Below are positions 5,532 through 27,584 of a stretch of 41,791 nucleotides of DNA, piece after piece. Location: positions 1 through 41,791 of the forward strand of contig CAZGWM010000002.1 in the NCBI GenBank assembly GCA_964529195.1, in the 5' to 3' direction. The translations under genes and the position numbers were made by a program. The notes under the pieces are model-generated. The model was not told the origin of the DNA and searched no databases. It saw only the letters and a program-made list of their open reading frames with translations. This stretch comes from an uncultured Muribaculaceae bacterium. Lineage in GTDB: Bacteria > Bacillota_I > Bacilli_A > RF39 > UBA660. The stretch's first letter is position 1, and each line of letters opens with the position of its first letter.

Positions 5532-6158
5532 GTGACTAAGAAGATTAAAATTATACTACTAATGCTTACACTTACTGTATGTATGGGTTTTATGAGTACT
5601 ACTTACTCAAGATATGTTGCTAGTGCGAAAAGTGATATTAATGCTCAATTTTCTAAATGGCAAATATTAGTTAACAATTTTGATATTACTAATCGAAAAG
5701 AATCATCAGTTGATATTACACCAGTGATTGAAGATAATACTCATGTTGCAAGTAATACATTTGCTCCTACTTCAAAAGGATACTTTGATATAGAAATTAA
5801 TCCAACTAATGTTGATGTATCATTTTTATATAATATTGATTTAAATATTGATAATGAGTCTATGCCTGATATATTAATAAATAAATATGCAATTTTACCA
5901 GATAATTATGTTGAAGGTGATAATTTAGATTTAACTATCATCGAAGATGGATCAATTACTAATACACTTCTTTATGATAATAATGCTGAGTCATTTACAT
6001 TTAATACTTTTACTATAAGAATATTCTTTGAATGGTATGAGGGTGAAGGTGAGTTTATGGATGATGAGGCAGATACTAATTTAGCTATGCTTGCTTTAAG
6101 TAATGAAACATCAGTTAAGATGAGCGCTAATATTAGATTTGAACAAGTTATTAATTAA
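5532..6158 (+). CDS. Secreted TasA/camelysin-like protein with SipW-class signal peptide (GTG start)
   Basis: MTKKIKIILLMLTLTVCMGFMSTTYSRYVAS signal. C-terminal FFEWYEGEGEFMDDEADTN...VKMSANIRFEQV resembles the terminal strands of the TasA/peptidase M73 family. Confidence 0.65.
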   Translation: MTKKIKIILLMLTLTVCMGFMSTTYSRYVASAKSDINAQFSKWQILVNNFDITNRKESSVDITPVIEDNTHVASNTFAPTSKGYFDIEINPTNVDVSFLYNIDLNIDNESMPDILINKYAILPDNYVEGDNLDLTIIEDGSITNTLLYDNNAESFTFNTFTIRIFFEWYEGEGEFMDDEADTNLAMLALSNETSVKMSANIRFEQVIN

Positions 6159-6199
6159 TTATAATATATCATACTCCTCTTTCCAGATTGTATGAATAT

Positions 6200-6225
6200 A
6201 AAAAAACAGCTTAGCTGTTTTTTTT
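6200..6225. terminator. Bidirectional terminator between convergent island genes
   Basis: AAAAAACAGC-TTA-GCTGTTTTTT hairpin with A-run and T-run flanks. Confidence 0.7.
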
Positions 6226-6226
6226 A

Positions 6227-7474
6227 TTATAAGTTTGTTTTATTCATTTCAATAACTGGTATTATATGACATAAGGCATTTTTATTTTCAGGATATATTT
6301 TAGTTCTTGTTTCGTTTTCTTTTATTACTGCAAATGCTTTTTCATTATTATATTCTTCATCTATCCAGTAACATTTACTACTTGTTAAGTATAAGTACTC
6401 TTGGTTATTAAATATGAATTTACCATTTTTAGACTCTACTTTATTAAGTATTGTATTTAATCTATTTTCATATGATAAGTTACCTATTATTCTATTTGAT
6501 ATACCAGGTATTGATATATATGAGTTTTTTATATCTTTAGATACTACCTTTAATAAATCTTCTATATTAAGAGCTCTAGTAGGCACGTTCCAAGCTGTTT
6601 GATATGAGTCTACTATATCTTTATAAGAATGGTATGTTTCTTCATTGTATGTTCTAAAAGGGTTTGGAAGAAGTGTTACTGTTTTATCTCCTAAAGTATT
6701 ATTTTCATCTATTATATAGCTTTTTATACATGTATCACTTATCGATGAGCATACATTATTATTTATTACATCAATTAGTATTTCATCTCCTAGGTTATAT
6801 CTAGGATCTGATGATGAATCATCATCTAAGTACTGGCCAGCTGTTAAGTTTATATCTACTTGAATAGATGCTTTTACTTCATATGACGGATCATTATTTT
6901 TCTTTAAAGCTTCATTTTCTTGAAATTCATGGGCTTTATTTCCCCAGTAACTATCAAGTTCATCATCTTCTGAATCAAGAGGCCACGAAACAGTTATTTC
7001 AAATGTTTCTTCTTCTCCTTTTGAGAGCATGTATTTTTTACTTAGTTTTACATTTATATTAAATGGATAATCCTGTGATATCACATCCATTATTTTTTCT
7101 GATGTTATTTCTTCTTCATCCAATATATAGTGATCTTTTTTATCTCCAAGTATTCTTGCTGATAATATATCATATGATATTTCAGCATCTGAATCTCCAA
7201 GGTTTCTTAAGGTTACATATTCTGTTTGAGGTTCCATTCCAGGATATAAATCAGATAACGACATAACTAGGTTATGAGTTACTGGTTTTCCATCTTTACT
7301 TATTTCAATATTCCAGGCTTTTACATTTACTTCAGTTCTTACTCTTAATACTCCACTATAAGCAAACCATGCAAGGGTCACTGATACAAATGATAGTGCC
7401 ATAAAAAATAGCGATGTTAAGTTCAATTTAAAATATGCTTTATAGCGTGATTTCATAAGGCACATCCCTTTCAT
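6227..7474 (-). CDS. Secreted two-domain protein: TasA-like N-terminal domain plus a C-terminal YW...PVI module, SipW-class signal
   Basis: Signal ...FFMALSFVSVTLAWFAYS. LYPGMEPQTEYVTLRNLGDSDAEISYDI and FEITVSWPLDSEDDELDSYWGN resemble TasA-type strands. The start may be the Met at 7456 (MKSRYK). Confidence 0.65.
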   Translation of the reverse strand: MKGMCLMKSRYKAYFKLNLTSLFFMALSFVSVTLAWFAYSGVLRVRTEVNVKAWNIEISKDGKPVTHNLVMSLSDLYPGMEPQTEYVTLRNLGDSDAEISYDILSARILGDKKDHYILDEEEITSEKIMDVISQDYPFNINVKLSKKYMLSKGEEETFEITVSWPLDSEDDELDSYWGNKAHEFQENEALKKNNDPSYEVKASIQVDINLTAGQYLDDDSSSDPRYNLGDEILIDVINNNVCSSISDTCIKSYIIDENNTLGDKTVTLLPNPFRTYNEETYHSYKDIVDSYQTAWNVPTRALNIEDLLKVVSKDIKNSYISIPGISNRIIGNLSYENRLNTILNKVESKNGKFIFNNQEYLYLTSSKCYWIDEEYNNEKAFAVIKENETRTKIYPENKNALCHIIPVIEMNKTNL

Positions 7475-7477
7475 ATT

Positions 7478-8053
7478 TTAGTTATTTTCTTTGTTTAGTC
7501 TCTTTTCTGCACTGTTTGATAATGTTATTGCTATTTCGTATCCAATTATTCCAACTAAAGGGACTATAATGCATAAATAAAATCCTATTTGGGTTGATAT
7601 TATTTTATATACAAATGATAGTGTTTTTACTTTATATACAATAACTCCAAGTAGCTGATCTTCATATACAGTTGGATCTTCTATTATGTTATTTAATCCT
7701 TTAGCTCTAAATTTATACTGACCCTTTGTATCTTGATCTACGCTTCTTACTTCGTGAGTTACTATTTTATCTTTTACATCTCCAACGCGACCTACATAAC
7801 TTATATCATCACCAGCTTTTACTTCTGATGCCGGTATTTCTTTTGATAATAAGACATCTCCTACGTTATATCTAGGCTCCATACTTGGTGTTACGACTGT
7901 AAACATCCTGAAATTAAAAAAGGATATTTTGTTATCACTAAATCTTTGTAAGTATACGGCTAAAACAAAGGCTATTATGAAGATTGTAAATATTGTTCCT
8001 ATTATTTTTCTTACTATTTTGCAAATTTTATTTTCTCTTAATTGTTTTAACAT
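7478..8053 (-). CDS. sipW: SipW-type (S26B, archaeal/ER-type) signal peptidase I
   Basis: N-terminal TM, catalytic TPSMEP and VTHEV boxes, AKGLNNIIEDP (GDNN-box variant) and a second C-terminal TM, as in B. subtilis SipW. Confidence 0.8.
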   Translation of the reverse strand: MLKQLRENKICKIVRKIIGTIFTIFIIAFVLAVYLQRFSDNKISFFNFRMFTVVTPSMEPRYNVGDVLLSKEIPASEVKAGDDISYVGRVGDVKDKIVTHEVRSVDQDTKGQYKFRAKGLNNIIEDPTVYEDQLLGVIVYKVKTLSFVYKIISTQIGFYLCIIVPLVGIIGYEIAITLSNSAEKRLNKENN

Positions 8054-8065: not shown

Positions 8066-9202
8066 TTAAAAATAATTTTGGGCTTTATCTAAGTATTCAT
8101 CTATTGCCGTTCTAAATTTATCTTTGATTAGTGCCTCATTTATTTCTGTTTGATCTTTTTCTTTTTTTAACTCTTCAGCTATAATACTTAATATTTCTTC
8201 TTCTGTTATCGTTATTCCATTACTTAAAAGAGTTGCAATTACTCTTTTTATTTGTTGATGCATCATTATGATAGCATACTCAGTTATTCTTTTTTTCTGA
8301 TCTCTTTTAAATGGTGTTATCGAGTCCATTACATAGTAGTTCATTAAAAAGGCATCATCTAATATTGATTTTAATATAGCATTTCCGGTTGAGTCAAGTG
8401 ATTCTTCTTTTTTCTCATCATCAATATCTTGATATGATTGAAGAAAGTCCCATACTTTCATCGCCATTTGGAAGTTTGGATTTTTTAAAATTAAGTTTGT
8501 TCTTCTAAGTGGCGGGAATACTAAAGATACGTTTGCATCTCTAAGTGATGTGTATAGCGCGCTTCTTTGCCATACCATTATAAATCTATTTATTAGTTCT
8601 ATTTTTTCATATACTTCTTTTAATTTTTCTTCTAGTGACTGAGCATTAGATCCTTCAAAATCAATATTTGGAAGCTGGTTTGCAGTTACTTTTAATTCAA
8701 TGTTTAATCTTTCAACTCCATTGTTAGTAGTTCCAGCATATTCAAGAGTTTTTTCATCTCTTACTTCCATGTCTTCCATTTCTTTTTCTTTTTGCATTAC
8801 GAATCTTGATAAGTTATATATAAGTGTATATAGTACTCTGTTTTCATATGTATTATATGTTTCTTCAGTTCTTTCAATTAGAAGTTTAGATGGCTGAACT
8901 TCACTTGTTATAGCATCTATTTTTTCTATATAGTGGGTATTTTTAGATAAGTCTTTTACACTTGCAACGCTTATTTTTTTAGCTTTTTCTACTTTCACTA
9001 CATCTTCTTCTTTAATTAAAGATACTTTTGGATTAGTTACTATATTATCGATATAAGGACATGCTTTTTCAATTAATTCAACCCAACTAAAATCTAAAGA
9101 TGTTGATGAGAATTCTGATTGGTATACCATCTTTGAGTTAATATTTTTAGTAAACAGTTCACTTTTATTATTTAGTTTTTCATTTAGTTTTAAGTTACTC
9201 AT
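8066..9202 (-). CDS. McrC-like / DUF2357-like protein without recognisable nuclease motif
   Basis: TYENRVLYTLIYNLSRFV (ENR helix) and RRTNLILKNPNFQMAMKVWDFL resemble the McrC N-terminal/DUF2357 region. No PD-(D/E)xK pattern visible in the C-terminal third. Lies immediately downstream of a McrB-like gene. Confidence 0.5.
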   Translation of the reverse strand: MSNLKLNEKLNNKSELFTKNINSKMVYQSEFSSTSLDFSWVELIEKACPYIDNIVTNPKVSLIKEEDVVKVEKAKKISVASVKDLSKNTHYIEKIDAITSEVQPSKLLIERTEETYNTYENRVLYTLIYNLSRFVMQKEKEMEDMEVRDEKTLEYAGTTNNGVERLNIELKVTANQLPNIDFEGSNAQSLEEKLKEVYEKIELINRFIMVWQRSALYTSLRDANVSLVFPPLRRTNLILKNPNFQMAMKVWDFLQSYQDIDDEKKEESLDSTGNAILKSILDDAFLMNYYVMDSITPFKRDQKKRITEYAIIMMHQQIKRVIATLLSNGITITEEEILSIIAEELKKEKDQTEINEALIKDKFRTAIDEYLDKAQNYF

Positions 9203-9220: not shown

Positions 9221-10753
9221 TTATGCTTGTTTTTTCAGTCTTTCTAAGAATTCAATACATTCAACCATTTTACCATTTCCAAACGCTTTATTTAGATATT
9301 GAATAAATGGATCAATTTCATCTCTTATAAATAGTATATTTAATTGCTCAAATTTACGTAATACTTTTTTAGCCATGAAGTAATCTATTGCCTCTACTTC
9401 AGTTCCACCACAAGCTACGTATACTGGAACGAATGTATTTAATTGTTTTAATATTCTGTTTCCGAATGCTATTCTAAAGTGTTTAATTACATACTGATCC
9501 ATTTCTTTTATCATTTTATCACTTGAATTTGATAATGGGAAATTTTCAACTGCTTCTTCAAATAGTTGTTCTAGGTAGCTAGCATTCATGCTCATTGCTT
9601 CTGTTTCAGGTGCTTTAAATGGTTCTACTTTTGTATTAATATCAATTGGCATAGCACGGTCATAAACTTTATCGGTAACCATGAATGTTGAGTCATCGTT
9701 ATTAATTGTTCCTATATACCAAAGGTTACCGGCTAGTTTTAATTTACCATTTTTTATGTATTTTGGATCGGTATCCCATCCACTTGTTACAAGTTCAATT
9801 ATCCATTCATCTCTTGATGGCATTTCTAGTATTGATAACATTTCAGCAAAGTAGTACTCTACTCTTGCTATATTCATCTCATCTAGTATGATTGTATGAA
9901 TATCATCTGTATAACCTGATGTGTATAATTCAGCTAGAACATCTGATTCGTTGAATTTTTTTGTAAATTCGTTGAAGTATCCTAGTAGTTCAGTTTTATC
10001 TCTCCATGATGGCTCTACTGATGCTATACATGAATCGTTATTTACATATTTACCCCAAGCATATGCTAAAGATGTTTTACCTGTTCCAGATATACCTTGA
10101 AGGATTATTAATTTACCACAAGATAACCCAGCTATAAAGCTTCTTAGAAGTGGAAGGTCATAGTATAGTTTAAGCTGAGATGCGTTGTAGTTTCTAAAGT
10201 TATTAACTACTTCTTTTAATGTATAGTTATTAGCATGTCTTTTAACTTTATATCCGGCATATTCTTTATCTATTGCAGTTAGTTTTGGGAATCTTGAATC
10301 TGATACATCTATATCAGTTTCCTCACCATCTTCATCTAATAAAGATGGATCATCTGGTGTATCTCCAGGTTTTAAGCCAAGCTGAGATACTTTCATTGCC
10401 ATTAAGTCTTCTCTTTCTTTCATTAATTTATTTACCTGGCTATGAAGATTATCTATTTCATTTAATAAATCATCTTGATTTACTTTTGTTCTTCCAATTC
10501 TTATTAGTTTTCTTACACCAAGTAGTGCTAAAACTACGATTGATACAATTATTATTACAACTAGTGCTATTACTAGTCCTACTAATAACCACTCAGCTCC
10601 ACTAAAACTATCTTGGTAACTTTCAAGAACTGATTTATAGTTATTGTAGTTAAACATCTTATAAAAGCCTTTTCCAAAACCTGAGAATATATCTATAAAT
10701 CCATCAAAGAATGCGGCTAAAAATTCGTATAAAAATCTAAAAAATATATTCAT
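9221..10753 (-). CDS. Membrane-anchored McrB-like AAA+ (AAA_5) GTPase
   Basis: TM helix EWLLVGLVIALVVIIIVSIVVLALLGV followed by RKLIRIGRTK, then a coiled coil. Walker A LQGISGTGKTSLA, Walker B plus McrB signature IILDEMNIARVEYYFAEMLSILE, and NLWYIGTINNDDSTFMVTDKVYDRAMPIDI (compare McrB IGTMNTADRS...RRRF). The start ATG overlaps the upstream stop (TAATG). Confidence 0.8.
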   Translation of the reverse strand: MNIFFRFLYEFLAAFFDGFIDIFSGFGKGFYKMFNYNNYKSVLESYQDSFSGAEWLLVGLVIALVVIIIVSIVVLALLGVRKLIRIGRTKVNQDDLLNEIDNLHSQVNKLMKEREDLMAMKVSQLGLKPGDTPDDPSLLDEDGEETDIDVSDSRFPKLTAIDKEYAGYKVKRHANNYTLKEVVNNFRNYNASQLKLYYDLPLLRSFIAGLSCGKLIILQGISGTGKTSLAYAWGKYVNNDSCIASVEPSWRDKTELLGYFNEFTKKFNESDVLAELYTSGYTDDIHTIILDEMNIARVEYYFAEMLSILEMPSRDEWIIELVTSGWDTDPKYIKNGKLKLAGNLWYIGTINNDDSTFMVTDKVYDRAMPIDINTKVEPFKAPETEAMSMNASYLEQLFEEAVENFPLSNSSDKMIKEMDQYVIKHFRIAFGNRILKQLNTFVPVYVACGGTEVEAIDYFMAKKVLRKFEQLNILFIRDEIDPFIQYLNKAFGNGKMVECIEFLERLKKQA

Positions 10754-12984
10754 TAATCTTCACCCTCTAAGCTTTCAAATTTTTCATATACATCATCATT
10801 TATAATATAACTTTTTAAATCATTTGGTATAAATTTATCTAGTTTATTATAGTTAGGGTCTTTTTTATTTACAAAGATTAAGTTTGCCATATATAGGCTA
10901 CTTTTTTCTTTTGCTGGTAAGTTTTTAGTATCAGGAAATCCTACTGCAAATTTATATCCTGCTTTTCTTAATTTTTTAACTATCTTTTTGTTTTTAACTA
11001 AGACATCAAAATCAATTAATATTATTATATGACTTTTTGCATATTCATCATCATATGTTTTTACTATTCTAAATATTTTCTTTTCTTTTGAATATAAGCT
11101 TTCAGGTAATGTAATATAATATTTGTTTTGGAAATTACAATTAATCATATCATCAAGTAATTTAGCAAGTAGAAGTGTTATTTTAACAGGCATTTTATCT
11201 TCTGCTATAATTCCTTCTTCATATGTTTGCTCGATTACATGCTCACTATATATTCTGTTAAAATCAACATTATGAATTAAGTTAACTGCATATGAATCTT
11301 TGACTATTTCAGCCATATTAATTCTAAATGTATTTGACTCAAGTTTCTTTAAAAAGAATCTTGATATTTCTTCATAAGTTTTTTGAAGTGAGATTACTTC
11401 ATTTGCAATTACCATTAAATTATTAGTATCTAGCTTAGTTTGATATTTAGCTAGTTCACTTTTAAAGAATTCTCTTTTTGTCTTTAAATCTTCAATAGAA
11501 CTTGCTCCTTGATCAAGTGCTGCTATGATGTTAAATATCTTAACGAATTTATCTACTTTTTCGTTATATTTATTATCGGTTCCTTTGTATGTATCTTTTA
11601 GTTCTTTACCAACTATTTCAAATAGTTTAGATACTTTTACAAGAAAGTTTTTACCCTTATAATTTATTTCTTTTTCACTAAAGTAATTATAATATTTAGC
11701 ATGGATATAAACTGTGTTAAATGAATTTCTTATTGTTGGTTCATTTGTGTCTAGTTTCTCATCATCTTGAACTAGTGAAACAAGTTCATTTAATTCATCT
11801 GTTTTTATATTCATAAGTGCATCAATAGTGTTTTTATTTCTTCTTACTGATTTTTTTAAAATATCTAAATTTATATCAGTTAAATCATCACTATCATTTA
11901 CAACTTCTTTTTCAACTTCTATTTTAGAGATTTCTTTTTTCTTTTCTTTTTCTGTATCAGCCATTTCATATTTAGCTATTTCTAGCATTGTTTCATCTAT
12001 TTGACTTGTATCAACAGGTATTATTCTAAAGAACTGAGTTTTATCTAAATCACTATCATAATACTCATCATCATCTAAAATTTCTTCATCTTCTAACTCT
12101 TCATCTAAATGTTTTTGATCTTCTAGTTTCACTTCTGTTATTTCATTTTCTTCTTTAGTATTACCAGTTGATATTATAAATGACTCATCGTTTATTTCTT
12201 CAACTACTAATGGTTCTTCTTCTGTTTCATTTTCTACAACTATTAAAGGCTCTTCTTCTGTTTCATCTTCGACTACTATTAAAGGTTCTTCTTCGGTAAT
12301 AACTATTTTTTCTAATTCATCAGTTATTATTAATTTATCATTATCTTCTTTAATTATATTTTGTAGTATCATCTCTTTTTTTAGTGATGATATTTTTTTA
12401 TCACGGTTAATGTATTTAATTTTTTCTTTTATAAACTTAATTATTTTCTTTAAGACTATATTTGTTTTTGTTTCTTTATTGTTTTTATCTTTAATTATTG
12501 ATTCAAGTAAGAATAATGATATTATTAAAAATACTAATACAGCAGGATTTAAGATTGTTTTTCTTAATATTCCAAAACCTGCTAGTGTGTTTACTACTTT
12601 ACCTACTACTTGGTTTTCTTCAACTAATTTGGCATCTTTAGATACATTGTTATCGCCTTGAGTTGAGTATTTTTTATCATGAATTTCAACGACTCTATGG
12701 GTTATGAAATTTTTTCCTTGTTTATATGTTATGATATCATCTAAATTTATTTTTGAATCTAGTTTTACTATTATCCAGTCTCCCGCTTTAATAGTATCTT
12801 TCATACTATTAGTTTGAACTTCAAACATTGTATATCCAAAAAAGTTAGAGTGATCTTGTTTTAAAAGTTTTATTTGCACTCCAGTATATGTTGTTACTAG
12901 TAATATCACACTTAATATAGCGATGAAAAAGTTTAATAAAATATTGATTATTTTTTCAGTAATTTGATTTTTTGCTATATTCAT
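10753..12984 (-). CDS. SipW-type signal peptidase fused to a ~570-aa acidic cytoplasmic extension
   Basis: Residues 1-175 form a complete S26B unit: TM, TNSMKDT, ITHRV, TQGDNNVSKD, second TM. This is followed by acidic repeats (EEEPLIVVEDET x3) and a C-terminal globular region with no assignable family. Confidence 0.75.
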   Translation of the reverse strand: MNIAKNQITEKIINILLNFFIAILSVILLVTTYTGVQIKLLKQDHSNFFGYTMFEVQTNSMKDTIKAGDWIIVKLDSKINLDDIITYKQGKNFITHRVVEIHDKKYSTQGDNNVSKDAKLVEENQVVGKVVNTLAGFGILRKTILNPAVLVFLIISLFLLESIIKDKNNKETKTNIVLKKIIKFIKEKIKYINRDKKISSLKKEMILQNIIKEDNDKLIITDELEKIVITEEEPLIVVEDETEEEPLIVVENETEEEPLVVEEINDESFIISTGNTKEENEITEVKLEDQKHLDEELEDEEILDDDEYYDSDLDKTQFFRIIPVDTSQIDETMLEIAKYEMADTEKEKKKEISKIEVEKEVVNDSDDLTDINLDILKKSVRRNKNTIDALMNIKTDELNELVSLVQDDEKLDTNEPTIRNSFNTVYIHAKYYNYFSEKEINYKGKNFLVKVSKLFEIVGKELKDTYKGTDNKYNEKVDKFVKIFNIIAALDQGASSIEDLKTKREFFKSELAKYQTKLDTNNLMVIANEVISLQKTYEEISRFFLKKLESNTFRINMAEIVKDSYAVNLIHNVDFNRIYSEHVIEQTYEEGIIAEDKMPVKITLLLAKLLDDMINCNFQNKYYITLPESLYSKEKKIFRIVKTYDDEYAKSHIIILIDFDVLVKNKKIVKKLRKAGYKFAVGFPDTKNLPAKEKSSLYMANLIFVNKKDPNYNKLDKFIPNDLKSYIINDDVYEKFESLEGED
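12196..12294 (-). repeat. In-frame 36-nt tandem repeat (2 full copies plus 1 partial) encoding EEEPLIVVE(D/N)ET
   Basis: Minus strand gaagaagaacctttaatagtagtcgaagatgaaaca, then gaagaagagcctttaatagttgtagaaaatgaaaca, then gaagaagaaccattagtagttgaagaa. Confidence 0.85.
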
Positions 12985-13104: not shown

Positions 13105-13629
13105 TTAGTTAAGTGCATTTTTTTTATTTAATTTTACTTCAATTATAATTGCATATAATTCATATATAAATATTAAGAAGCTTGGTATTAATACGATAAA
13201 GAAAAATCCCCAAGTAGATTGAATCATTCCCAGTACTGTTCCTACTTTTTCAATTACTCTTTCAGCAGATCCAATAAGTAAACTTTCTGAATATGTTGCA
13301 CCATTTTCAAATGATATGGCTTCTTCAGTAAGATGAACTTCTCCAACTACTCCTAAATCTATTTGTGGTGCTCCTGTTTTTTGAGTTTTGTAAACAAATA
13401 TTTCATCACCCAGTTTTATATCTGCTAGGTTTTTATTTCTTACAAGCACTACATCACCTTTTTTATAGTTTTCTGATGTTAAGTTATTTTTTATTATAAT
13501 AACTGATAGATCATCAAACTGAGTTACTTTATATTTGTTTATATTTAGTAATAGTATTGTATTAAATATAACAAATGTAAAATATATTACCGCTAGTATT
13601 CCTAAGAATATATTTTTTATTATTTTCAT
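13105..13629 (-). CDS. SipW-like pseudo-peptidase (catalytic Ser box lost)
   Basis: Same architecture and length as SipW: N-terminal TM, KGDVVLV...LGDEIFVY beta core, C-terminal TM. NNLTSEN replaces S-M-x-P and the GDNN box is absent. ATG 13629 with GGAGAA RBS preferred over the TTG at 13677. Confidence 0.6.
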   Translation of the reverse strand: MKIIKNIFLGILAVIYFTFVIFNTILLLNINKYKVTQFDDLSVIIIKNNLTSENYKKGDVVLVRNKNLADIKLGDEIFVYKTQKTGAPQIDLGVVGEVHLTEEAISFENGATYSESLLIGSAERVIEKVGTVLGMIQSTWGFFFIVLIPSFLIFIYELYAIIIEVKLNKKNALN

Positions 13630-13678
13630 TTTATTTTCTCCTATTTTTATCTTATCATAAATGCTTTTGTGTTTCAAT

Positions 13679-15310: not shown

Positions 15311-15832
15311 CTAAGTTATTTGCCATGATGCTATTTCAAGTTTTAGAAAATCAACTAATCCTGAGTATGATGCATCGTTATGTTCTTCACTGAATTTAAC
15401 TACTAGTTTATAGTCATCTTTTTCTTTTTGTTTATGATTTAAAGTTAGTGGAGGTGCGTTACATATTAACTCGTTTTGATTATTTCTAGAATATGTTTCA
15501 TCACAAGTAATTACTAATACATCTCCTCTATATAATTTTATTTCAAGTGGCATAAAGTGATATGTTTTTATTTTTATTTGATATTCAAAAGATACATCAC
15601 TTATTTTTTCATCTGCATTATTTGCTACTGAGAAGTTATATTCTTTTTCATCTCCTGGTAGCATATTTGTTAGCGGTATTTCTAGTTCATTTTCCATTTT
15701 AGCATCAAATATAAATGTAGCAATATTTTGATCATCTATTTTTAATTCAGCACTTGATGTGAAAACTGAGTATGTTAAAGCAAGGGAAAATATAAGTAAA
15801 GTTATAAGTATTACTTTGATTCTTTTTTTCAT
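15311..15832 (-). CDS. Small TasA/camelysin-like secreted protein (minimal single domain)
   Basis: Signal ...IFSLALTYSVFTSSAELKI. LPGDEKEYNFSVANNADE and the C-terminal FSEEHNDASYSGLVDFLKLEIASWQ follow the TasA/peptidase M73 strand pattern. Confidence 0.7.
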   Translation of the reverse strand: MKKRIKVILITLLIFSLALTYSVFTSSAELKIDDQNIATFIFDAKMENELEIPLTNMLPGDEKEYNFSVANNADEKISDVSFEYQIKIKTYHFMPLEIKLYRGDVLVITCDETYSRNNQNELICNAPPLTLNHKQKEKDDYKLVVKFSEEHNDASYSGLVDFLKLEIASWQIT

Positions 15833-19388: not shown

Positions 19389-19415
19389 CTAAAAAAACTC
19401 CAAATTATGGAGTTT
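19389..19415 (-). terminator. Rho-independent terminator after the 535-aa gene
   Basis: Minus strand AAACTCC-ATAATTT-GGAGTTT hairpin overlapping the stop, followed by TTTTTT. Confidence 0.65.
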
Positions 19416-22354: not shown

Positions 22355-23632
22355 TTATGGTGTTTCAGTTGTTGTTGGTTGTGTTGTTGGTGTAACTGAT
22401 GTAATAGCAGGTCCATCATAACCAGGAATATCAGATTGTACATATCTTTGTTTTGTAAATCCGAAGTTTACTAGTATACTTTTTCCGATTGATGCAAAGT
22501 CATAGTTATCTATGTCTTGTCCTTCAATATAAATGTATACTCTTACTTTTGTTACACTGTTTGGAGCAAGTGTCATAAATGTTGGACGGCTTGTTCCTGT
22601 TAGTAATTTCATACTATCTGTAAAATATGGATATGCGTATAATGGTTTTTCATTATCATCATCTTCACCAGCTGTTGTTGTATATCCGTTGAACGCAGCT
22701 CCATCATATACGTCTACTCTATCACTTGAACCAATTACTTGGTTAACAGCATATGTAGGATATGAAGTTCCATCTACAACTGTACCGCAAGCTCCATCAA
22801 ATGAGTCTGAATCATTTAGATCTAATCCTGTTCTTGCTTTACATGATGTTTCATACCAGCTAATTGCGCCACCAACGTGATCTGTATCATTTGGTTCCCA
22901 AATTTGTGCTGATTTTGTACAAATTCCAGTTACTCCAGCTGCTGTTGCACAAGTAATACCTGTAATATCAGATGCTGATGCTGTTTTAGCGTTTACACGT
23001 CCGATTTGTGCAAATGCTACTCTTACTGAGTTTTCAATTCCTGTATTAGGAACTCCTGTACCAGCTTCATTTACAACTACTGCTGAGTCTACTGATAAGT
23101 AAATTGCTTCTTCATCAAGTGGTTCATAATCTGTGAAGTATGCTGCACCTGAATGATTTTTAATAAATAAATCAAATGCTACATAACCATTGTTATCATA
23201 TTTATGATCTTCTTGACCTTCAACACTAGCATCCCCGTTTTTAACACGGCTTGCCATTAATCTAAATCCACCTAGAGATGTTGTTATACTTGCTTTTTCG
23301 TATAATACCATTCTTGATGATTCAGAATCAATTTTACCTACTGATGACATTGGGATTAATCCATTACCTGACCACCAGTTTGTGTTGCCTTCGTATGAAA
23401 CTGTTTTAAAGTTATCTGAGTTAATTGCAACTGTTCCGCCCCAGTCTTCTCCATTTAGTGATAATTCAAGATCATCTGTAGTTGCGATTGTAACATCAAA
23501 GTTTGTTACGTTAACTGTTTGCAGTCCGATAAACCATGCATAAGTAGATACAGATAAAATTATCGCTGTTAAAGATAAAGCAATAACTAAGTTTCTGACA
23601 CGATTTTTGTGTCTATCTTTTTGTTCTTTCAT
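22355..23632 (-). CDS. Island family paralogue D (425 aa), Gly/Ala/Thr-rich, Thr/Pro tail
   Basis: Signal ...IILSVSTYAWFIGLQTVNVTNFDVTIA. YVAFDLFIKNHSGAAY, GIENSVRVAFAQIGRV, IWEPNDTDH and VRVYIYIEGQDIDNYDFASIGKSILVNFGFTKQR. The C-terminus is TPTTQPTTTETP. Confidence 0.8.
   Translation of the reverse strand: MKEQKDRHKNRVRNLVIALSLTAIILSVSTYAWFIGLQTVNVTNFDVTIATTDDLELSLNGEDWGGTVAINSDNFKTVSYEGNTNWWSGNGLIPMSSVGKIDSESSRMVLYEKASITTSLGGFRLMASRVKNGDASVEGQEDHKYDNNGYVAFDLFIKNHSGAAYFTDYEPLDEEAIYLSVDSAVVVNEAGTGVPNTGIENSVRVAFAQIGRVNAKTASASDITGITCATAAGVTGICTKSAQIWEPNDTDHVGGAISWYETSCKARTGLDLNDSDSFDGACGTVVDGTSYPTYAVNQVIGSSDRVDVYDGAAFNGYTTTAGEDDDNEKPLYAYPYFTDSMKLLTGTSRPTFMTLAPNSVTKVRVYIYIEGQDIDNYDFASIGKSILVNFGFTKQRYVQSDIPGYDGPAITSVTPTTQPTTTETP
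23511..23545. repeat. 35-nt block shared between paralogue genes (33/35 identical to 25859..25893)
   Basis: ttaactgtttgcagtccGataaaccatgcAtaagt versus ttaactgtttgcagtccAataaaccatgcGtaagt. It encodes the signal-peptide end and the first mature residues. Other shared blocks: 22445..22465 = 24829..24849 (21/21) and 22515..22545 versus 24899..24929 (30/31). Confidence 0.9.
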
Positions 23633-23647
23633 AATTACCTCTTTCCT

Positions 23648-24340
23648 CTATTTAATTATTTCTGATTTAAAATCCATATGGATTTTAATCTGACCACCCA
23701 GAATGTTATCGGTTGTTTCTGGATCGGTCCCTTCTAGCCATAAGACTATCGTATACTTGTCGCTATCTCCTGGTGCAAAATTTTGTACATGGTCTCTTGC
23801 AACAAGGGTACTTGTAGTAAAAGGTGTAGTATTAGGCTCAGGCATATTATTTCTAGACATCATGGCGTAGGTTGTTGCCTCACCATTTTTGTATAGTCTA
23901 ATTCGCACTGCTTCATCTACACTTTTAGTAGCATCATCTATTATTATTTCTGACCAGTAGTCAGCTATTTCATTTCCAAGGTTTTCTACATAAAAAGTAT
24001 ATGCGACAAAGTTCTCTCCGTTATGTGATCCATTACTTCTTGTATCAAGATTATCAGGTAGCCATGTTCCTGATATGTTATCAAAATGATTCATAGTTTC
24101 AGCAAACAGCTCAGATCTAAATACTTTGTAATCTGGATCATCATATATAATGATGTTATTTTTAGTATATAACTCTCTTTGTAAGTTAACACTAAAACTT
24201 CCACCTTTATACATTAATTCAAATACTAAATATGTTATTAGTAATAAAAGTAATATAAATAAAATAATCAGTTTTAGTATTTTAGTTACTTTCTTCTTAC
24301 GTCTGAGTTTTTTAGCACTTATCTCTATTTCTTTTTTCAT
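23648..24340 (-). CDS. Short island family member C (230 aa) with long basic N-terminus and TM helix
   Basis: MKKEIEISAKKLRRKKKVTKILKLIILFILLLLLITYLVFEL. FVAYTFYVENLGNEIA and YTIVLWLEGTDPETTDNILGGQIKIHMDF align with the paralogue motifs. Confidence 0.7.
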   Translation of the reverse strand: MKKEIEISAKKLRRKKKVTKILKLIILFILLLLLITYLVFELMYKGGSFSVNLQRELYTKNNIIIYDDPDYKVFRSELFAETMNHFDNISGTWLPDNLDTRSNGSHNGENFVAYTFYVENLGNEIADYWSEIIIDDATKSVDEAVRIRLYKNGEATTYAMMSRNNMPEPNTTPFTTSTLVARDHVQNFAPGDSDKYTIVLWLEGTDPETTDNILGGQIKIHMDFKSEIIK

Positions 24341-24471: not shown

Positions 24472-24500
24472 TAAAAATAAAAAAAGTGCGTTAGCACTTT
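24472..24500 (-). terminator. Strong Rho-independent terminator after paralogue B
   Basis: Minus strand AAAGTGC-TAAC-GCACTTT followed by TTTTTTATTTTT. Confidence 0.75.
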
Positions 24501-24510
24501 TGGTTTATTA

Positions 24511-25980
24511 TTATTCAACGATTACTGTTCTTGTTTTTACGCCAAGATTTCCAGCTTCATCGACAGCTTTCCATGTAATTTTGTATGTTCCAGCTACTGA
24601 TGTATTTACTGTTCCAACTGATGTTAGTGTAATGTTTGCTGTTTCTGATACATTATCTGTTGCTGTTGCTCCAGCATCTGTATAATCATTAGCATTTGAT
24701 TCATTTAATGTAACAGTTACAATTTCATCACCTGTTAATTGAATTCTTGGTGGTGTTAGGTCTGCTCCTGCAGGTCCCTCTCCTTGGTTTGCATCTGGAC
24801 CAGTATAGTCAAAGTCATCTTCTGTGAATCTTTGTTTTGTAAATCCGAATGCAACATTAATCATTTTTCCTACTGATGCGAAATCGTAGTTATCGATATC
24901 TTGTCCTTCAATATAAATATATACTCTTAGTTTTGTAATACTATTTGGTGCAAGTGTTAATAATGTAGGTCTTGAAGTACCAGCTAAGAATTTTTGTGTA
25001 TCAGTAAATGTTTTTACTGGATCTAAGAATGATGCTGATCCTGCATATGTGTTATATACTAATCCATCATATATATCTACATTTGATTTTGAAGGTATAG
25101 CAGCTTTTATAGCATATGTAGGGTAAGCTAAGCCATCTACTACTACTCCACATGCAGATGAGTTATATGAAGCCGCTAATGTTATATCAGTTCCTCCAGA
25201 TACTCTTTGACGGCATGTTGTATTATACCAACCGATTGCTCCTTGTGTATGTGATGTGTCATTTGGTTCCCAAATTGTAGCAGCTCTACAAATTCCGGTT
25301 ACTCCTTCATCAGTTCCAGCACAGTCAATTCCTTGAATTAATTCTGCAGCTGAGCCTGGTGTTGTACCAATTACACGTCCAATTTCAGCAAAGGCTACTC
25401 TTACTGAGTTTTCAATTCCAGTTCCACCTGTACCTCCAACATCTGATACAACTACTCTTGAATCAGTTGTTAGATAAATTGCTTCTTCATCTTCTTGATT
25501 TAAAGCAGGAATATAATTTGTTCCAGTATAGTTTTTAACAAATAGGTCAAATGCTACATAGCCTTTGTACTCTGAATCACCATGGTTTTCTACTTCACTT
25601 GCTAAAAGTCTCATTCCACCAGGTGATGGTGTAAGTGATGCTTTTTCGTATAAGTATAATCTTGATGATGTTTGATTAATTTGCCCTACTGTTGACATTG
25701 GAAGCAGTCCAGTTCCAGCCCACCAGTTTGTGTTGTCTTCATATGTTGCTACATCATAGTTTGAACCATTTATGGTTACTGATTCACCAAATGTTATACC
25801 ATCTAGTGATAGTTGCAGACTATCTGTACCAGCAATTGTAACATCAAAACTAGTAACGTTAACTGTTTGCAGTCCAATAAACCATGCGTAAGTTGCTACT
25901 GATACTACTACAGCTGTTAGTGCAAATAGTATAACTAGATTTCTTACTCTTCTCATGGAATTTTTGTTCTTGTCTTTCAT
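24511..25980 (-). CDS. Island family paralogue B (489 aa) with C-terminal DUF5011-like Ig domain; candidate major subunit
   Basis: Start taken at MKDKNKNSMRR (GGAAAGAGGA RBS) rather than the ORF-track 26043. Signal ...VVVSVATYAWFIGLQTVNVTSFDVTIA. The C-terminal PPRIQLTGDEIVTVTL...YTDAGATATDNVSE...SVAGTYKITWKAVDEAGN...RTVIVE follows the DUF5011 pattern. The gene has its own promoter and terminator. Confidence 0.8.
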   Translation of the reverse strand: MKDKNKNSMRRVRNLVILFALTAVVVSVATYAWFIGLQTVNVTSFDVTIAGTDSLQLSLDGITFGESVTINGSNYDVATYEDNTNWWAGTGLLPMSTVGQINQTSSRLYLYEKASLTPSPGGMRLLASEVENHGDSEYKGYVAFDLFVKNYTGTNYIPALNQEDEEAIYLTTDSRVVVSDVGGTGGTGIENSVRVAFAEIGRVIGTTPGSAAELIQGIDCAGTDEGVTGICRAATIWEPNDTSHTQGAIGWYNTTCRQRVSGGTDITLAASYNSSACGVVVDGLAYPTYAIKAAIPSKSNVDIYDGLVYNTYAGSASFLDPVKTFTDTQKFLAGTSRPTLLTLAPNSITKLRVYIYIEGQDIDNYDFASVGKMINVAFGFTKQRFTEDDFDYTGPDANQGEGPAGADLTPPRIQLTGDEIVTVTLNESNANDYTDAGATATDNVSETANITLTSVGTVNTSVAGTYKITWKAVDEAGNLGVKTRTVIVE

Positions 25981-26074
25981 TTTTTCCTCTTTCCTTCTAT
26001 ATATTTTTTGTATATTATGCTTCCTACAAGTGATAATATACATATAATCGATATCTACTATCGTATATAGTATA

Positions 26075-26102
26075 ATCTTATCACATAGAATTTCTTTGTC
26101 AA
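26075..26102 (-). promoter_or_regulatory. Sigma-A-type promoter for paralogue B
   Basis: Minus strand TTGACA (26102..26097), 16 nt, TAAGAT (26080..26075). Same hexamers as the promoter at 24410..24438. Confidence 0.55.
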
Positions 26103-26110
26103 TATTATTA

Positions 26111-26152
26111 TAAGATTTTTTTAAAAAAAGACTTCCTTTTTTAGAAAATCTT
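26111..26152 (-). terminator. Weak AT-rich hairpin after paralogue A
   Basis: Minus strand AAGATTTTCT-AAAAAAG-gaagt-CTTTTTT-TAAAAAAATCTT nested stem, almost all A:T. Confidence 0.3.
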
Positions 26153-26153
26153 T

Positions 26154-27584
26154 TTACTCAACAATTACTTTTACAACTATCTCCTCAGCATAATTTCCAG
26201 CCCAGTCACTTACATTATATCTAACATAATACTCACCTGGTATATTTGTATTTACAGGATTTGTTACTTGAATTCTTCTTGTTATATCATCTATTAAAGG
26301 ACTACCATCAGGAAACTCAGCTGTTTTATCTATTGCAGTTGCATTTGGTGGTATAAATGTTGATCCTCTTGGAACTATTATTTCTCTTACATCTGGAGTT
26401 ATTGTTATTACTGGTGGCCAGTCATCTGTTCCTGCCTCACCAGATTCATAGAAGAAGTCTGTTGATGAGAATCTTTCTTTAGTAAATCCAAACTGGATAC
26501 TTAATCTTTTACCTACGGCTGCAAAGTCATAGTTATCTATATCTTGTCCTTCTAAATATATATATACTCTTATTTTAGTTATACTATTTGGCGCTAGTGT
26601 AAATATTTCTTTTCTATCAGTTCCAGTTAAATCTCTCATTGTATCGGTAAATGTATTTACGCTTGATAATCTAGTGCTATTTGTATATCTATTATATGCA
26701 GATCCATCATACACATCAACATTATGGTTAGATCCTATTGTATTATTTACTGAATATGTTGGATAGTATTTTCCGTCTTCTATTTTATTACATGAACCAG
26801 AGTATGATCCTGATGATCTTACATCAGATCCAGTTCTTCTTCTGCAAGTTGTATTATACCAGCTGATTGCTCCTTGGGTATGAGCTTTATCATTTGGTTC
26901 CCATATAACGGCATCTCTACATATTGATGTTACTAAATCTGTGTTTTTACATGCAATAGATGTTATTGTGTTTTGATCTTCTATTGAGGCAATTAATCTT
27001 CCAATTTGCATAAATGCTATTCTAACAGAGTTTTCAATTCCAGCACCTGGAGTTCCGCTTTTAGCAGTTTCAACTTCAGAGTCAATTGTTAGGTATAGTG
27101 CTTCTTCATCTAAATAATTTATATCTTTATAATATGCTTTTCCTGAGAAGTTTTTTATAAATAAATCAAAGGCTACATATCCTGGTTTTTCATATGCTCC
27201 ATCATTATTGACTCTACTTGCCATTAATCTAAATCCACCACTGGTAGCAGTCATTGATGCTTTTTCATATAAAATCATTCTTGATGTTGAAACATTTGCT
27301 TTTCCAGTTGATGACATTGGAATTAATCCTTTACCACCCCATGAGTTAGTGTGTCCTTCAAATAATTTATCATGATTTTCTTCATTTATAGTTACTTCAT
27401 TTGACCAGTTTTTTCCATCTACTGATATTAAGATACTTTCAGTTGAGGCAATTTTCATATCAAATGAAGTTATATTTACTGTTCTTAAGCTAATAAACCA
27501 TGCGTAAGTAGCTACTGATATTAACAGTGCGGTTATTCCAAATATAATTGCTGTATTTATTATTTTTCTTTTATTTTTAAGCAC
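26154..27584 (-). CDS. Island family paralogue A (476 aa) with C-terminal DUF5011-like Ig domain (GTG start)
   Basis: AGAGGTAA RBS, then GTG. Signal ...LLISVATYAWFISLRTVNITSFDMKIA and the same internal motifs. The C-terminus is PPVITITPD...ATAIDK...IPGEYYVRYNVSDWAGN...VKVIVE. Confidence 0.8.
   Translation of the reverse strand: MLKNKRKIINTAIIFGITALLISVATYAWFISLRTVNITSFDMKIASTESILISVDGKNWSNEVTINEENHDKLFEGHTNSWGGKGLIPMSSTGKANVSTSRMILYEKASMTATSGGFRLMASRVNNDGAYEKPGYVAFDLFIKNFSGKAYYKDINYLDEEALYLTIDSEVETAKSGTPGAGIENSVRIAFMQIGRLIASIEDQNTITSIACKNTDLVTSICRDAVIWEPNDKAHTQGAISWYNTTCRRRTGSDVRSSGSYSGSCNKIEDGKYYPTYSVNNTIGSNHNVDVYDGSAYNRYTNSTRLSSVNTFTDTMRDLTGTDRKEIFTLAPNSITKIRVYIYLEGQDIDNYDFAAVGKRLSIQFGFTKERFSSTDFFYESGEAGTDDWPPVITITPDVREIIVPRGSTFIPPNATAIDKTAEFPDGSPLIDDITRRIQVTNPVNTNIPGEYYVRYNVSDWAGNYAEEIVVKVIVE

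Follow-up and report, generated by a model that had tools for sequence, protein, structure and literature searches.

The locus reported here comprises 16 genes in about 22 kb of the window, by which we mean the whole stretch of 41,791 nucleotides that was analysed, and it is conserved across uncultured low-GC, monoderm Bacilli of gut and digester origin. All the related loci compared come from MAGs or metagenomes. The ten open reading frames that the earlier note had proposed as cargo were confirmed with their coordinates; nine indeed look like cargo, the tenth (tm230) being probably an anchor instead. Absent from that note were an McrB-like GTPase, an McrC-like (DUF2357) protein, a protein called cyt535 and an extension of about 580 aa on one of the SipW homologues (SipWfus). 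Coordinates below refer to the minus strand unless a plus strand is indicated.

Gene order and surroundings

The order (P)n-tm230-P-P356-cyt535-e1157-d173-c539-SipWdeg-SipWfus-McrB-McrC-SipW1-b415-a208, where P stands for large exported paralogues, recurs in related loci from dozens of MAGs. The block from SipWfus to a208 has two placements, after SipWdeg or before tm230, and stays adjacent in every case. Two long contigs (1.49 Mb and 429 kb) carry the e1157-to-a208 half in the same order as the window, and the 429-kb contig has the P-to-d173 half too. The genes are thus strongly co-conserved in relatives, a check that had been proposed at the outset. Junctions from e1157 to b415 are tight or overlapping, and terminator-like hairpins are seen downstream of individual P genes. 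The four closest relatives with a visible upstream flank have housekeeping genes there, in a conserved order. The locus matches the “CoCoPALM” class. A census of type IV restriction systems (Bell et al. 2024) names this clade of 'CoCoNuT-like systems' in one passage without description. Pilus assembly is predicted in the sole published comment on this class.

A Spo0A_C-domain protein is encoded in the window, 10 kb from the locus, and a Hydrolase_2 (PF07486) gene, which we take to belong to the SleB spore-cortex-lytic hydrolase family, lies near the locus in one related genome. TasA, the fibre protein of the tapA-sipW-tasA operon, was originally reported as a protein associated with the spore coat. 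These two genes would be compatible with a spore-associated structure (an appendage, a crust or a coat layer), as would the title of the TasA PDB entry 5of1, 'Spore coat-associated protein N'. Such a role nevertheless looks very improbable: there is no sporulation gene inside the locus, profile searches gave no sigma-factor or coat-protein family match, many carriers are labelled as Mollicutes- or Tenericutes-like MAGs with small genomes, and PMC10868615 reports sporulation losses in these orders of Bacilli.

Exported proteins and their signal peptides

In Bacillus subtilis, TasA needs the ER-type peptidase SipW and is cut only poorly by the ordinary signal peptidase. Nine pre-proteins of the locus bear a Sec-type signal peptide whose hydrophobic helix ends in T-x-[A/S]↓x-[F/Y/W/L], reproducing the P3/P1/P2' pattern at which SipW cuts TasA. 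The context is T-Y-A↓W-F in the locus proteins and T-W-A↓A-F at the SipW-dependent site of TasA (PMC10269814). A scan of the window ORFs of at least 100 aa, which required T-x-[AS]-x-[FYWL] after a hydrophobic stretch and inside the N-terminal 70 residues, retrieved 9 out of 36, every one inside the locus, against a background of 3 in 254 unrelated ORFs of related loci. The motif is conserved family by family in the orthologues, as SNTYSRY, (T/S)LAWFAYSG, [TF]-x-AKYV, GITYSxF, PTLA(R/K/E)F, S(T/S)YAW(L/F) and STYAWF, with A32 and W33 invariant in alignment A1. The earlier note had listed ten such motifs; nine stand and that of tm230 falls. Its association of dedicated SipW peptidases with a large exported set is borne out, the signal peptides copying the TasA cleavage context.

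Two patterns pointed out in the earlier note, the strand F-x-[VIL]-x-N-x-[GS] and an acidic loop near the C-terminus, are visible by eye, but profile-profile comparison of the mature domains finds no significant mutual relation between the cargo families, except for the four large paralogues together.

These four (P paralogues 1 to 3 and P356) form a new family, distinct from TasA, that lacks annotation and spans over 2,000 sequence clusters. In P paralogue 1 (26154..27584, 476 aa), the signal end STYAWF is followed by a new beta-rich domain and, at the C-terminus, by a Bact_surface_Ig-like domain (DUF5011; PF16403, E=7e-11); its identity to the other P genes is 49-52%. P paralogue 2 (24511..25980, C-terminal DUF5011 Ig-like domain, PF16403 E=1e-12) has 489 aa when read from 25980, a start with a strong ribosome-binding site (GGAAAGAGG); no such site precedes the start of the longer ORF at 26043. 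P paralogue 3 (22355..23632, 425 aa), the candidate major structural subunit, ends in a Thr/Pro-rich tail and has 2,153 homologous clusters, every one unnamed or labelled DUF5011. Terminator-like hairpins accompany paralogues 2 (24501-24482) and 3 (22299-22273). P356 (21176..22246, 356 aa, STYAWL signal end) is a divergent member, with 28-30% identity to the P genes (E from about 1e-31 to about 1e-34; hhalign probability 100%). It directly follows the P-gene block in nearly all related loci, and cyt535 normally comes next.

A structural search had been proposed as a check on a TasA fold. The AF2 model of P paralogue 3 is of good quality (pLDDT 85.8, pTM 0.85), and Foldseek returned no match at E<0.001 in PDB or BFVD. 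Since neither sequence nor profile nor Foldseek comparison relates the family as a whole (356-510 aa) to TasA or known pilins, polymerisation of the P proteins is an assumption. A two-dimensional coat or variable protective layer, S-layer-like, masking phage receptors or evading immunity, could be imagined instead of a fibre, the P expansion then providing surface variation. Several features of the family would suit it: P copies vary from 2 to 7 between genomes, with paralogues 49-57% identical; each of the P genes is served by a ribosome-binding site of its own and, in many cases, by a terminator-like hairpin; the P-gene G+C content (31-33% vs about 25%) is compatible with highly expressed structural genes; and the fold is large, with no pilin match. 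We consider this coat unlikely, because Pfam searches detected no SLH, CWB2 or further wall-binding module, because small jelly-roll proteins with conserved disordered N-termini rather suit strand exchange, and because pilus assembly is what has been predicted for the CoCoPALM class. LPXTG-like motifs are absent too; the earlier note had likewise seen no wall-anchoring module.

The protein tm230 (23648..24340, 230 aa) has one long Leu-rich N-terminal helix (membrane helix 21-39) and no conserved SipW-type site. Its 'ITYLVF' is not conserved in 64 orthologues (LIYLVF, IIYIIF, MLYIVF and others), and the small P1 residue is absent. As judged from its sequence, it is probably a type II membrane anchor that stays uncleaved and exposes a beta domain outside the cell. 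Its C-terminal 80 residues or so align weakly with the C-terminus of P and P356 (hhalign probability 20-24%). With few exceptions its gene adjoins a P gene in the related loci, mostly just upstream, with a gap of 15 bp in the window.

Among the other products, e1157 (15850..19323, 1157 aa) is exported; its signal end, PTLAKF, is conserved in the form PTLA(R/K/E)F. Present in 48 loci, it could be an adhesin or a tip component; its sole family match is a sub-threshold OmpL47-type domain (37 bits vs a cut-off of 40), and no relative was found in PDB. The exported c539 (13679..15298, signal end TFA↓KY) is conserved over its N-terminal 275 aa or so, its orthologues being mostly about 300 aa long, and its C-terminal extension, weakly similar to DUF6273, is common only to the closest relative. 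The conserved cyt535 (19414..21021, 535 aa, in 56 of 77 loci) has neither membrane helix nor signal peptide and is thus presumably cytoplasmic; it contains no hydrophobic segment and gave no Pfam, NCBIfam or PDB match.

Weak but recurrent, sub-threshold similarity to TasA/camelysin (Peptidase_M73) is detectable in one cargo only, the jelly-roll protein d173 (15311..15832, 173 aa, signal end ITYS↓VF). The window copy matches PF12389 at E=0.023 (15 bits vs a cut-off of 22.5), and TasA 5of1 comes up for d173 at E=0.94. M73 is matched by 14 of 30 orthologues at E<=1 (best E=3.6e-6), and by only 2 of 42 more distant relatives. The AF2 model of d173 (pLDDT 79) returns generic jelly-rolls in Foldseek, and the pLDDT of the conserved mature N-terminus (residues 26-43) falls below 50. 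This is analogous to the disordered donor loop modelled in C. perfringens BsaA (PMC11580942). Two further exported families show no M73 match, in 0 of 7 orthologues for b415 (6227..7474, 415 aa, signal end TLA↓WF, LAWFAYSG invariant), which has no PDB match either, and in 0 of 13 for a208 (5532..6158, plus strand, 208 aa, signal end NTYS↓RY, with T24, Y25, S26 and Y28 invariant). The divergently transcribed a208 marks one end of the locus, as the last cluster gene before unrelated genes in the related loci L078 and L079.

The SipW homologues and the McrBC-like pair

The three SipW homologues are mutually homologous, as announced in the earlier note, yet only two keep the catalytic Ser and His. 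SipW1 (7478..8053, 191 aa) is a stand-alone ER/archaeal-type signal peptidase I with its Ser (SMEP) and His (THE) kept (TIGR02228, 71.5 bits vs a cut-off of 51.85; SipW of Bacillus, E=5.6e-15). SipWfus (10753..12984) includes a SipW-type peptidase over residues 18-154 or so, with conserved catalytic motifs (SM, THR, GDNN; TIGR02228, 62.1 bits vs 51.85), and looks like an active signal peptidase. After the second of its membrane helices (12-30 and 146-164) is fused an unannotated region of about 580 aa, acidic-repeat and helical, which is presumed to be cytoplasmic. SipWdeg (13105..13677) keeps both membrane helices (25-43, 146-164) and scores 18.7 bits against the same cut-off of 51.85. It has lost Ser and His and is thus a pseudo-peptidase, both residues being absent in all orthologues when aligned with the two active families. 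Its true start is probably an internal Met, 48 nt downstream of the TTG of the ORF, which lacks a ribosome-binding site.

The SipWfus stop overlaps the start of the gene for a membrane-anchored McrB-like AAA+ GTPase (9221..10753, 510 aa). The GTPase motifs, namely Walker A (GISGTGKTS), Walker B (IILDEMN) and the NNDD signature, are invariant in 8 orthologues; they come after a hydrophobic N-terminal region, a predicted membrane helix (60-78) and a stretch resembling a coiled coil. The membrane helix stands in place of the DNA-binding domain of McrB. The closest library match is PADLOC PDC-M26A, a candidate defence protein (E=2.3e-37); other matches are to NCBIfam McrB (E=1e-3), to E. coli McrB (6hz4, E=0.008, residues 203-387) and, over residues 57-133, to an FtsL-like family (E=0.03). 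The adjacent McrC-like protein (8066..9202) has only the McrB-activating N-terminal domain (DUF2357; PF09823, 36.5 bits vs a cut-off of 23.3). A PD-(D/E)xK nuclease domain was not detected in it, nor any PDB match, and its 736 homologues, of about 377 aa, have PF09823 alone.

McrBC relatives are mostly defence systems. A McrBC/CoCoNuT-like conflict or defence system, the secreted proteins being effectors or sensors, would be consistent with the McrB lineage of the GTPase and the placement of CoCoPALM among 'CoCoNuT-like systems'. It remains hardly credible, given that family and defence-library searches of the 16 proteins detected no effector domain, be it a nuclease, a methylase, a toxin or another kind, that exported beta-rich proteins served by a dedicated peptidase make up 9 of the 16 products, and that the flanks seen in the four closest relatives are housekeeping genes.

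The pair could otherwise be an unrelated defence cassette inside an enlarged but ordinary TasA/camelysin locus, all cargo having the TasA fold and self-assembling by donor-strand exchange after SipW cleavage. The TasA-like cleavage motif, the active SipW genes, the weak M73 matches and jelly-roll model of d173 and the PADLOC match of the GTPase agree with this explanation, which we regard as quite unlikely. Indeed, neither M73 nor TasA is matched by the P, a208 and b415 families; of the hyper-expanded TasA/M73 cargo proposed earlier, only d173 shows such similarity, below threshold. Moreover, the GTPase and McrC-like genes have a SipW gene on either side, the junctions overlapping or measuring 12-18 bp, and this position is kept in every locus reaching far enough, at 37-69% protein identity; as described above, the DNA-binding domain is replaced and the nuclease is not detectable.

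A putative assembly system and its relation to known loci

On balance, the sequences point to a SipW-gated, possibly GTP-assisted system exporting structural proteins, which would probably assemble a surface fibre or coat. The fibre of major, minor and tip subunits suggested in the earlier note is plausible. The two active SipW enzymes would release the cargo, of which the abundant P paralogues may form the bulk of the structure, while d173, and perhaps a208, could act as TasA-like minor or initiator subunits with the disordered conserved mature N-terminus as donor strand. The e1157 protein would be the adhesin, and uncleaved tm230 would anchor the structure in the membrane. The dead SipW, SipWfus and the McrBC-like GTPase may constitute a membrane platform coupling nucleotide hydrolysis to processing, passage or polymerisation. 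To our knowledge, TasA-type fibres assemble without an NTPase, which makes the role of the GTPase speculative.

The presence of the McrB-like GTPase, the McrC-like protein, cyt535 and the SipWfus extension distinguishes this locus from a larger tapA-sipW-tasA operon. Its main proteins belong to a new family, not to TasA, and its middle is occupied by a membrane-bound McrBC-like GTPase, so that it probably represents an uncharacterised surface-fibre or coat assembly system.

Organization and conservation of the locus

The locus comprises 16 genes between positions 5532 and 27584 of a window of about 25% G+C, in which nearly every gene lies on the minus strand. The ten cargo open reading frames listed in the earlier note are all present in the sequence, and the start at 25980 of the gene 24511-25980 has a strong ribosome-binding site ahead of it, for which the longer reading frame starting at 26043 has no counterpart. 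From 19323 down to 6227 the gene junctions are mostly 1-18 bp, with two longer ones of 90 and 120 bp, and the 3' end of 10753-12984, at its stop, overlaps with the start of 9221-10753. Between the large paralogues lie gaps of 108-173 bp, and two of these genes are followed by terminator-like hairpins. Two mechanical starts are probably too long, namely that of 13105-13677 (13629-13677), a TTG without ribosome-binding site, and that of 6227-7474 (7456-7474), since the orthologues start at an internal Met (MKIIKNIF and MKSRYKAYF, respectively).

Species-representative genomes, when scanned, encode relatives of the large paralogues (the P family; 22355-23632, 24511-25980 and 26154-27584) at 242 places. 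From these, 74 distinct loci were retained; they stem from gut, rumen and digester samples and belong to metagenome-assembled genomes or assemblies of uncultured bacteria with the labels Bacilli, Mollicutes, Tenericutes or Bacillota, a few having evidently wrong taxon labels. The window proteins were mapped onto 77 loci, and a recurring order emerged. Its first half runs from a series of P genes to a 230-residue membrane protein (23648-24340), a further P gene, the divergent P paralogue P356 (21176-22246), a 535-residue protein (19414-21021), then proteins of 1157 (15850-19323), 173 (15311-15832) and 539 residues (13679-15298), and SipWdeg, a degenerate SipW paralogue (13105-13677). The second half consists of SipWfus, an extended SipW paralogue (10753-12984), an McrB-like GTPase (9221-10753), an McrC-like protein (8066-9202), SipW1 (7478-8053), a 415-residue protein (6227-7474) and, on the opposite strand, a 208-residue protein (5532-6158). 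In some genomes this second block lies ahead of the 230-residue protein gene and not behind SipWdeg, the two blocks being always adjacent, and the P copies number 2 to 7 per genome. On the 1.49-Mb contig OW818670.1 and on a 429-kb metagenome contig, the half from the 1157-residue to the 208-residue protein is found in the same order, and the cluster ends at the latter, with unrelated genes next; the 429-kb contig also shows the half from P to the 173-residue protein. The earlier note had staked its reading on these genes being conserved together in relatives, and the recurrence of their order over the 77 loci clearly bears this out. Three related loci (L047, L051 and L059) have SipWdeg followed directly by the 208-residue protein gene, on the opposite strand, in place of the GTPase block, and in two of them a second start of the series (230-residue protein, then P) follows, which points to some genomes having tandem or rearranged copies of the cargo module.

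Acquisition of the locus as a horizontal island was considered and rejected, because in the four closest relatives whose upstream flank is visible the housekeeping genes on the flanks keep the window's order, and because the rise in G+C is limited to the P genes. Over the four P-type genes (window 21000-28000) the G+C content is 31-33.5%, against 23-26% in most other parts of the locus, which probably reflects a Gly/Ala/Thr-rich composition or high expression and not a foreign origin. No integrase or transposase was found among the window proteins scanned. Directly upstream of the first P gene, at 27646-29903 (minus strand), lie genes for a DUF2207 membrane protein, whose C-terminal tail is Gly-rich, and for a LemA family protein. 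Among the four closest relatives showing this flank (L004, L011, L024 and L038), the DUF2207 gene holds the same position in all and the LemA gene in three (L011, L024 and L038); the pair is absent from more distant relatives. About 10 kb from the SipW locus, two neighbouring regulator genes are found on the minus strand at 37454-38137 and 38197-38991, one with a Spo0A C-terminal DNA-binding domain (E=5.9e-31), the other with a receiver domain in its C-terminal half (E=1.2e-18). The organism has thus a Spo0A-like regulator near the locus; the tapA-sipW-tasA operon of B. subtilis is indirectly controlled by Spo0A.

SipW-type peptidases and the exported proteins

Against the TIGR02228 model of ER/archaeal-type signal peptidase I (curated cut-off 51.85 bits), SipW1 scores 71.5 bits and SipWfus 62.1 bits, and SipW1 as well as the first ~155 residues of SipWfus also match the Bacillus SipW model. 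In a three-family alignment, the catalytic Ser (in SM) and His (in THR/THE) are conserved in the SipW1 and SipWfus families. SipWdeg reaches only 18.7 bits, below the cut-off; it and nine aligned orthologues retain the two membrane helices with both Ser and His replaced. The earlier count of three SipW paralogues thus holds for two with intact Ser and His, but the third is a predicted pseudo-peptidase, a homologue that would not be an active member of the family since both catalytic residues are absent in all ten aligned sequences. After its second membrane helix, SipWfus extends over ~580 residues with acidic repeats, which match no family.

Nine proteins share a basic N-terminus and a single hydrophobic helix, followed by T-x-[A/S]-x-[F/Y/W/L]. 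A motif scan recovers 9 of the 36 window ORFs, every one within the locus, against a background of 3/254 ORFs from related loci. The motif is kept among the orthologues of each family: A32 and W33 of the large paralogues are invariant, and so are T24, Y25, S26 and Y28 of the 208-residue family. Assuming a cut after the Ala or Ser, P3 would be Thr, P1 a small residue and P2' aromatic (Leu in P356), so that the small P3/P1 and aromatic P2' which characterize SipW-type signal peptides are present at the predicted site of nine families. The B. subtilis TasA site, T-W-A|A-F, is cut by SipW, an enzyme of the ER type, and the Phe at P2' and the Trp at P2 impede ordinary signal peptidase (PMC10269814). 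No NCBIfam signal-peptide family model matches at E<=1. This part of the earlier observation is therefore real and specific, in view of the scan enrichment, the conservation among orthologues and the TasA-type cleavage context. It has to be restricted from ten proteins to nine, however: the ITYLVF of the tenth, the 230-residue protein, is not conserved across 64 orthologues, which have in common a long Leu-rich helix instead, and we read this protein as a putative uncleaved membrane anchor. Elsewhere, the related locus L042 encodes, at 8361-9776 on the plus strand, a protein of 471 aa whose TasA-like signal end is a different one, GITAAYFSITVTGNN; its gene lies just upstream of an isolated P homologue, and the remaining cluster genes are absent from that locus.

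The relation of these proteins to TasA is more restricted than the earlier note had proposed. None of the ten window cargo proteins reaches the gathering cut-off of PF12389, Peptidase_M73 (22.5 bits); the 173-residue protein scores 15 bits, the other nine have no match at E<=1, and no TasA/M73 match exceeds the cut-offs in Pfam and NCBIfam scans of all ten. For the 173-residue family, 14 of 30 orthologues match M73 at E<=1 (best 3.6e-6), against only 2 of 42 more distant relatives (best 8.5e-5), and one homologue carries a precomputed PF12389 annotation. Per-orthologue Pfam scans gave no M73 match for the 208-residue (0/13) or the 415-residue family (0/7). PDB sequence and profile searches covered P, the 173-, 208-, 415-, 535- and 1157-residue proteins and the McrC-like protein. 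The only relevant PDB matches were TasA (5of1) for the 173-residue profile, at E=0.94, and McrB for the GTPase; the 208- and 415-residue proteins had no sequence match, and P had neither sequence nor profile match, nor any M73 signal.

Among the cargo proteins themselves, all-against-all BLAST defines a single true paralogue group, the genes starting at 21176, 22355, 24511 and 26154 (28-57% identity), and profile-profile comparison of the families without their signal peptides reveals no significant relation beyond these four; the best leftover signal, at ~20-24% probability, links the C-terminal ~80 residues of the 230-residue protein to the paralogue C-terminus. A kinship between the 173- and 208-residue proteins was discarded, as the apparent 60% match, driven by the signal peptide, fell to 1.4% once signal peptides were removed. 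The AF2 model of P (pLDDT 85.8, pTM 0.85) has no Foldseek match in PDB or BFVD at E<0.001. That of the 173-residue protein (pLDDT 79) retrieves generic jelly-rolls (IBDV VP2, lambda gpJ, Pgp3, Ena2A; E~2e-4 to 2e-3), and TasA is not among the best 50 matches listed. Its mature N-terminus (residues 26-43) is conserved, with A38 and F40 invariant and F42 conserved, and has a pLDDT below 50 in the monomer model; this would be expected of a donor strand, as has been modelled for BsaA (PMC11580942), and is an indirect hint of possible polymerisation by donor-strand exchange. Taken together, the M73, BLAST, profile-profile and fold results leave TasA family membership not shown for nine of the ten cargo proteins and borderline for one.

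Both families are large. A full HMMER search yields ~1,100 clusters at 50% identity for the 173-residue family, a broad one of small exported proteins, and the P family has 2,153 homologous clusters, either "hypothetical" or named solely for a C-terminal DUF5011 Ig-like domain; a look-up of the window's P protein by exact sequence found no record. In one protein of 2,967 aa (P0319), 20 separate stretches match positions 49-84 of the 173-residue family profile, so that the central strand motif of this small protein occurs also as a tandem repeat in a giant one. Two Cys are conserved in the 173-residue family (C110, C124). In the P-family alignment A1 (numbering of 22355-23632), C228 and C238 are invariant, C264 and C282 near-invariant, and an invariant acidic EGQD-x-D loop precedes the last strand. 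In an exported protein of an anaerobe, such features might represent disulfides and a metal site.

The McrBC-like pair and a possible assembly mechanism

The inventory in the earlier note covered the cargo and SipW genes but missed the most unusual feature of the locus, an McrBC-like GTPase. On its sequence, the protein encoded by 9221-10753 belongs to the AAA+ proteins of McrB lineage, with matches to the PADLOC model PDC-M26A (E=2.3e-37), to E. coli McrB structures (6hz4; E=0.008, residues 203-387) and to NCBIfam McrB (E=1e-3). Both Walker motifs, A and B, and the NNDD signature are invariant. The latter, GT(I/x)NNDDST, is readable as NxD or NxxD, and phmmer against E. coli McrB aligns it as NxxD. 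A strong membrane helix spans residues 60-78 and is followed by a coiled-coil-like stretch; residues 57-133 give only weak FtsL-type matches (E=0.034). The McrC-like protein has the McrC N-terminal domain DUF2357 (36.5 bits against a cut-off of 23.3) and no other domain. Its 736 homologues are all of ~377 aa, and the 120 listed carry PF09823 only. No nuclease family matches the window protein, and the alignment shows no conserved D...(D/E)xK motif on a hydrophobic strand.

The two genes are 18 bp apart in the window, and SipW-type genes lie on either side of them, there and in every related locus that extends far enough. The pair cannot be dismissed as a passenger, since this place between two peptidase genes is kept at 37-69% protein identity. 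The simple enlargement of a TasA locus into which a defence cassette had hitch-hiked fits the gene content less well. An origin as phage or defence island was rejected: a PHROGs search returned nothing relevant, and PADLOC matched only the AAA core of the GTPase. The 535-residue protein is also conserved, without membrane segment or family match.

These elements can be arranged into a putative pathway. Substrates would be exported by Sec and then cleaved by SipW. The P paralogues would provide the bulk material, and the small jelly-roll proteins, whose N-terminal strand would be free, would use it to act as initiator or minor subunits in the manner of TasA, with the 1157-residue protein as an adhesin and the 230-residue protein as a membrane anchor. 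A membrane platform made up of the dead and the extended peptidase together with the GTPase pair would link nucleotide hydrolysis to one of three steps: processing, passage through the wall, or polymerisation. The mention of the wall comes from the neighbouring genes, LtaS-like sulfatase and VanY-like in the window, PBP5 and MltG-like beside a related locus. In its strongest form, which we offer as a tentative and rather doubtful possibility, a membrane-anchored ring of the McrB-like GTPase, its McrC-like activator being devoid of nuclease, would dock to SipWfus and SipWdeg and, by hydrolysing nucleotides, drive or gate the processing and polymerisation of the P subunits with their new fold, as an undescribed surface-filament machinery of monoderm bacteria. 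Other readings would turn the same exported proteins into a two-dimensional or variable surface coat, a spore-associated structure or the secreted effectors of a conflict system; each of them fits the gene content less well. If GTPase-driven filament assembly proved true, such machinery would stand apart from sortase pili, type IV pili and TasA fibres, which assemble by themselves, and would include the first McrBC-type motor used for extracellular assembly instead of nucleic-acid restriction.

Comparison with known systems

The locus is best filed as a variant of the SipW/TasA-type surface-protein systems. The description as a hyper-expanded TasA locus was right in recognizing a SipW-gated, co-conserved system of exported proteins, but the TasA label overstates what is demonstrable. 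SipW/TasA-type fibres are the model for the protein scaffolds of Gram-positive biofilms. They are not known to require energy input or dedicated machinery for their assembly, nor to have an NTPase of their own. The tapA-sipW-tasA (B. subtilis), sipW-tasA-calY (B. cereus) and sipW-bsaABC (C. perfringens) operons likewise have an ER/archaeal-type peptidase beside its substrates, signal peptides ending in T-aromatic-A|x-aromatic, at least one small jelly-roll protein with weak Peptidase_M73 similarity and a disordered, conserved mature N-terminus (here, on its model, the 173-residue protein), and no wall-anchor motif. However, they comprise 3-6 genes against 16 here. The locus retains the SipW gate and the TasA-style cleavage site, and has two active-type SipW, one with a large, presumably cytoplasmic fusion, plus an inactive one. 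Its main cargo proteins (356-510 aa) form a new family, for which no relationship to TasA is detectable; this family of probable major subunits is very large and unannotated, and a confident model finds no known structural match. The membrane GTPase of McrB lineage, the McrC-like protein and the 535-residue, presumably cytoplasmic protein are integral to it. Such loci are widespread in uncultured Bacilli of human, animal and digester microbiomes.

Sortase-assembled Gram-positive pili differ by their LPXTG-type sorting signal and sortase gene, neither of which was found in the locus. As the earlier note had stated for LPXTG, no LPxT[GAN], NPxTG or LPxAG is present in any locus protein, and sortase and Gram_pos_anchor searches gave no family match. 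The AbpA bundling pili of Pyrobaculum are built of exported jelly-roll subunits, which signal peptidase I cuts and donor-strand complementation links (PMC9245690); by analogy, we propose this mechanism for the small subunits. The archaeal operon has no dedicated peptidase (PMC9245690) and no reported McrBC-like GTPase, and no sequence or structure link was found between AbpA pili and the P family.

With E. coli McrBC, the pair shares the AAA+ GTPase core, with Walker A, Walker B and Asn/Asp signature, and a partner with a DUF2357 domain, which in McrC activates the McrB hexamer. It differs by a membrane helix in place of the DNA-binding N-domain, by the lack of a detected PD-(D/E)xK nuclease in the partner, and by its location between the signal peptidase genes of an export locus.

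A further parallel came from a literature search on DUF2357. The McrBC census of Bell et al. (eLife 2024) mentions a large clade whose McrB-like GTPase carries, as a fusion, a transmembrane and coiled-coil domain of FtsB type; this clade was named CoCoPALM, with detail deferred to a later paper, and the published text is a short passage without cargo, gene list or mechanism (PMC11090510). The accessible part of the supplements of PMC11090510 holds no CoCoPALM data. Searches on the name returned only this paper and its preprint, and those on SipW with McrB, or on TasA-like clusters with AAA proteins, nothing specific. The resemblance lies in the GTPase with N-terminal membrane helix and coiled-coil-like stretch, the adjacent McrC homologue with DUF2357, the association with signal peptidase family proteins and the predicted link to pilus assembly. 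By gene content, membership of the locus in CoCoPALM appears likely, short of proof since both the NxD or NxxD signature and the FtsB homology are ambiguous. As a probable member of a class named but undescribed, the locus supplies concrete gene content for what has so far been only a name in the literature, and a testable case of a restriction-type motor re-used in cell-surface assembly.
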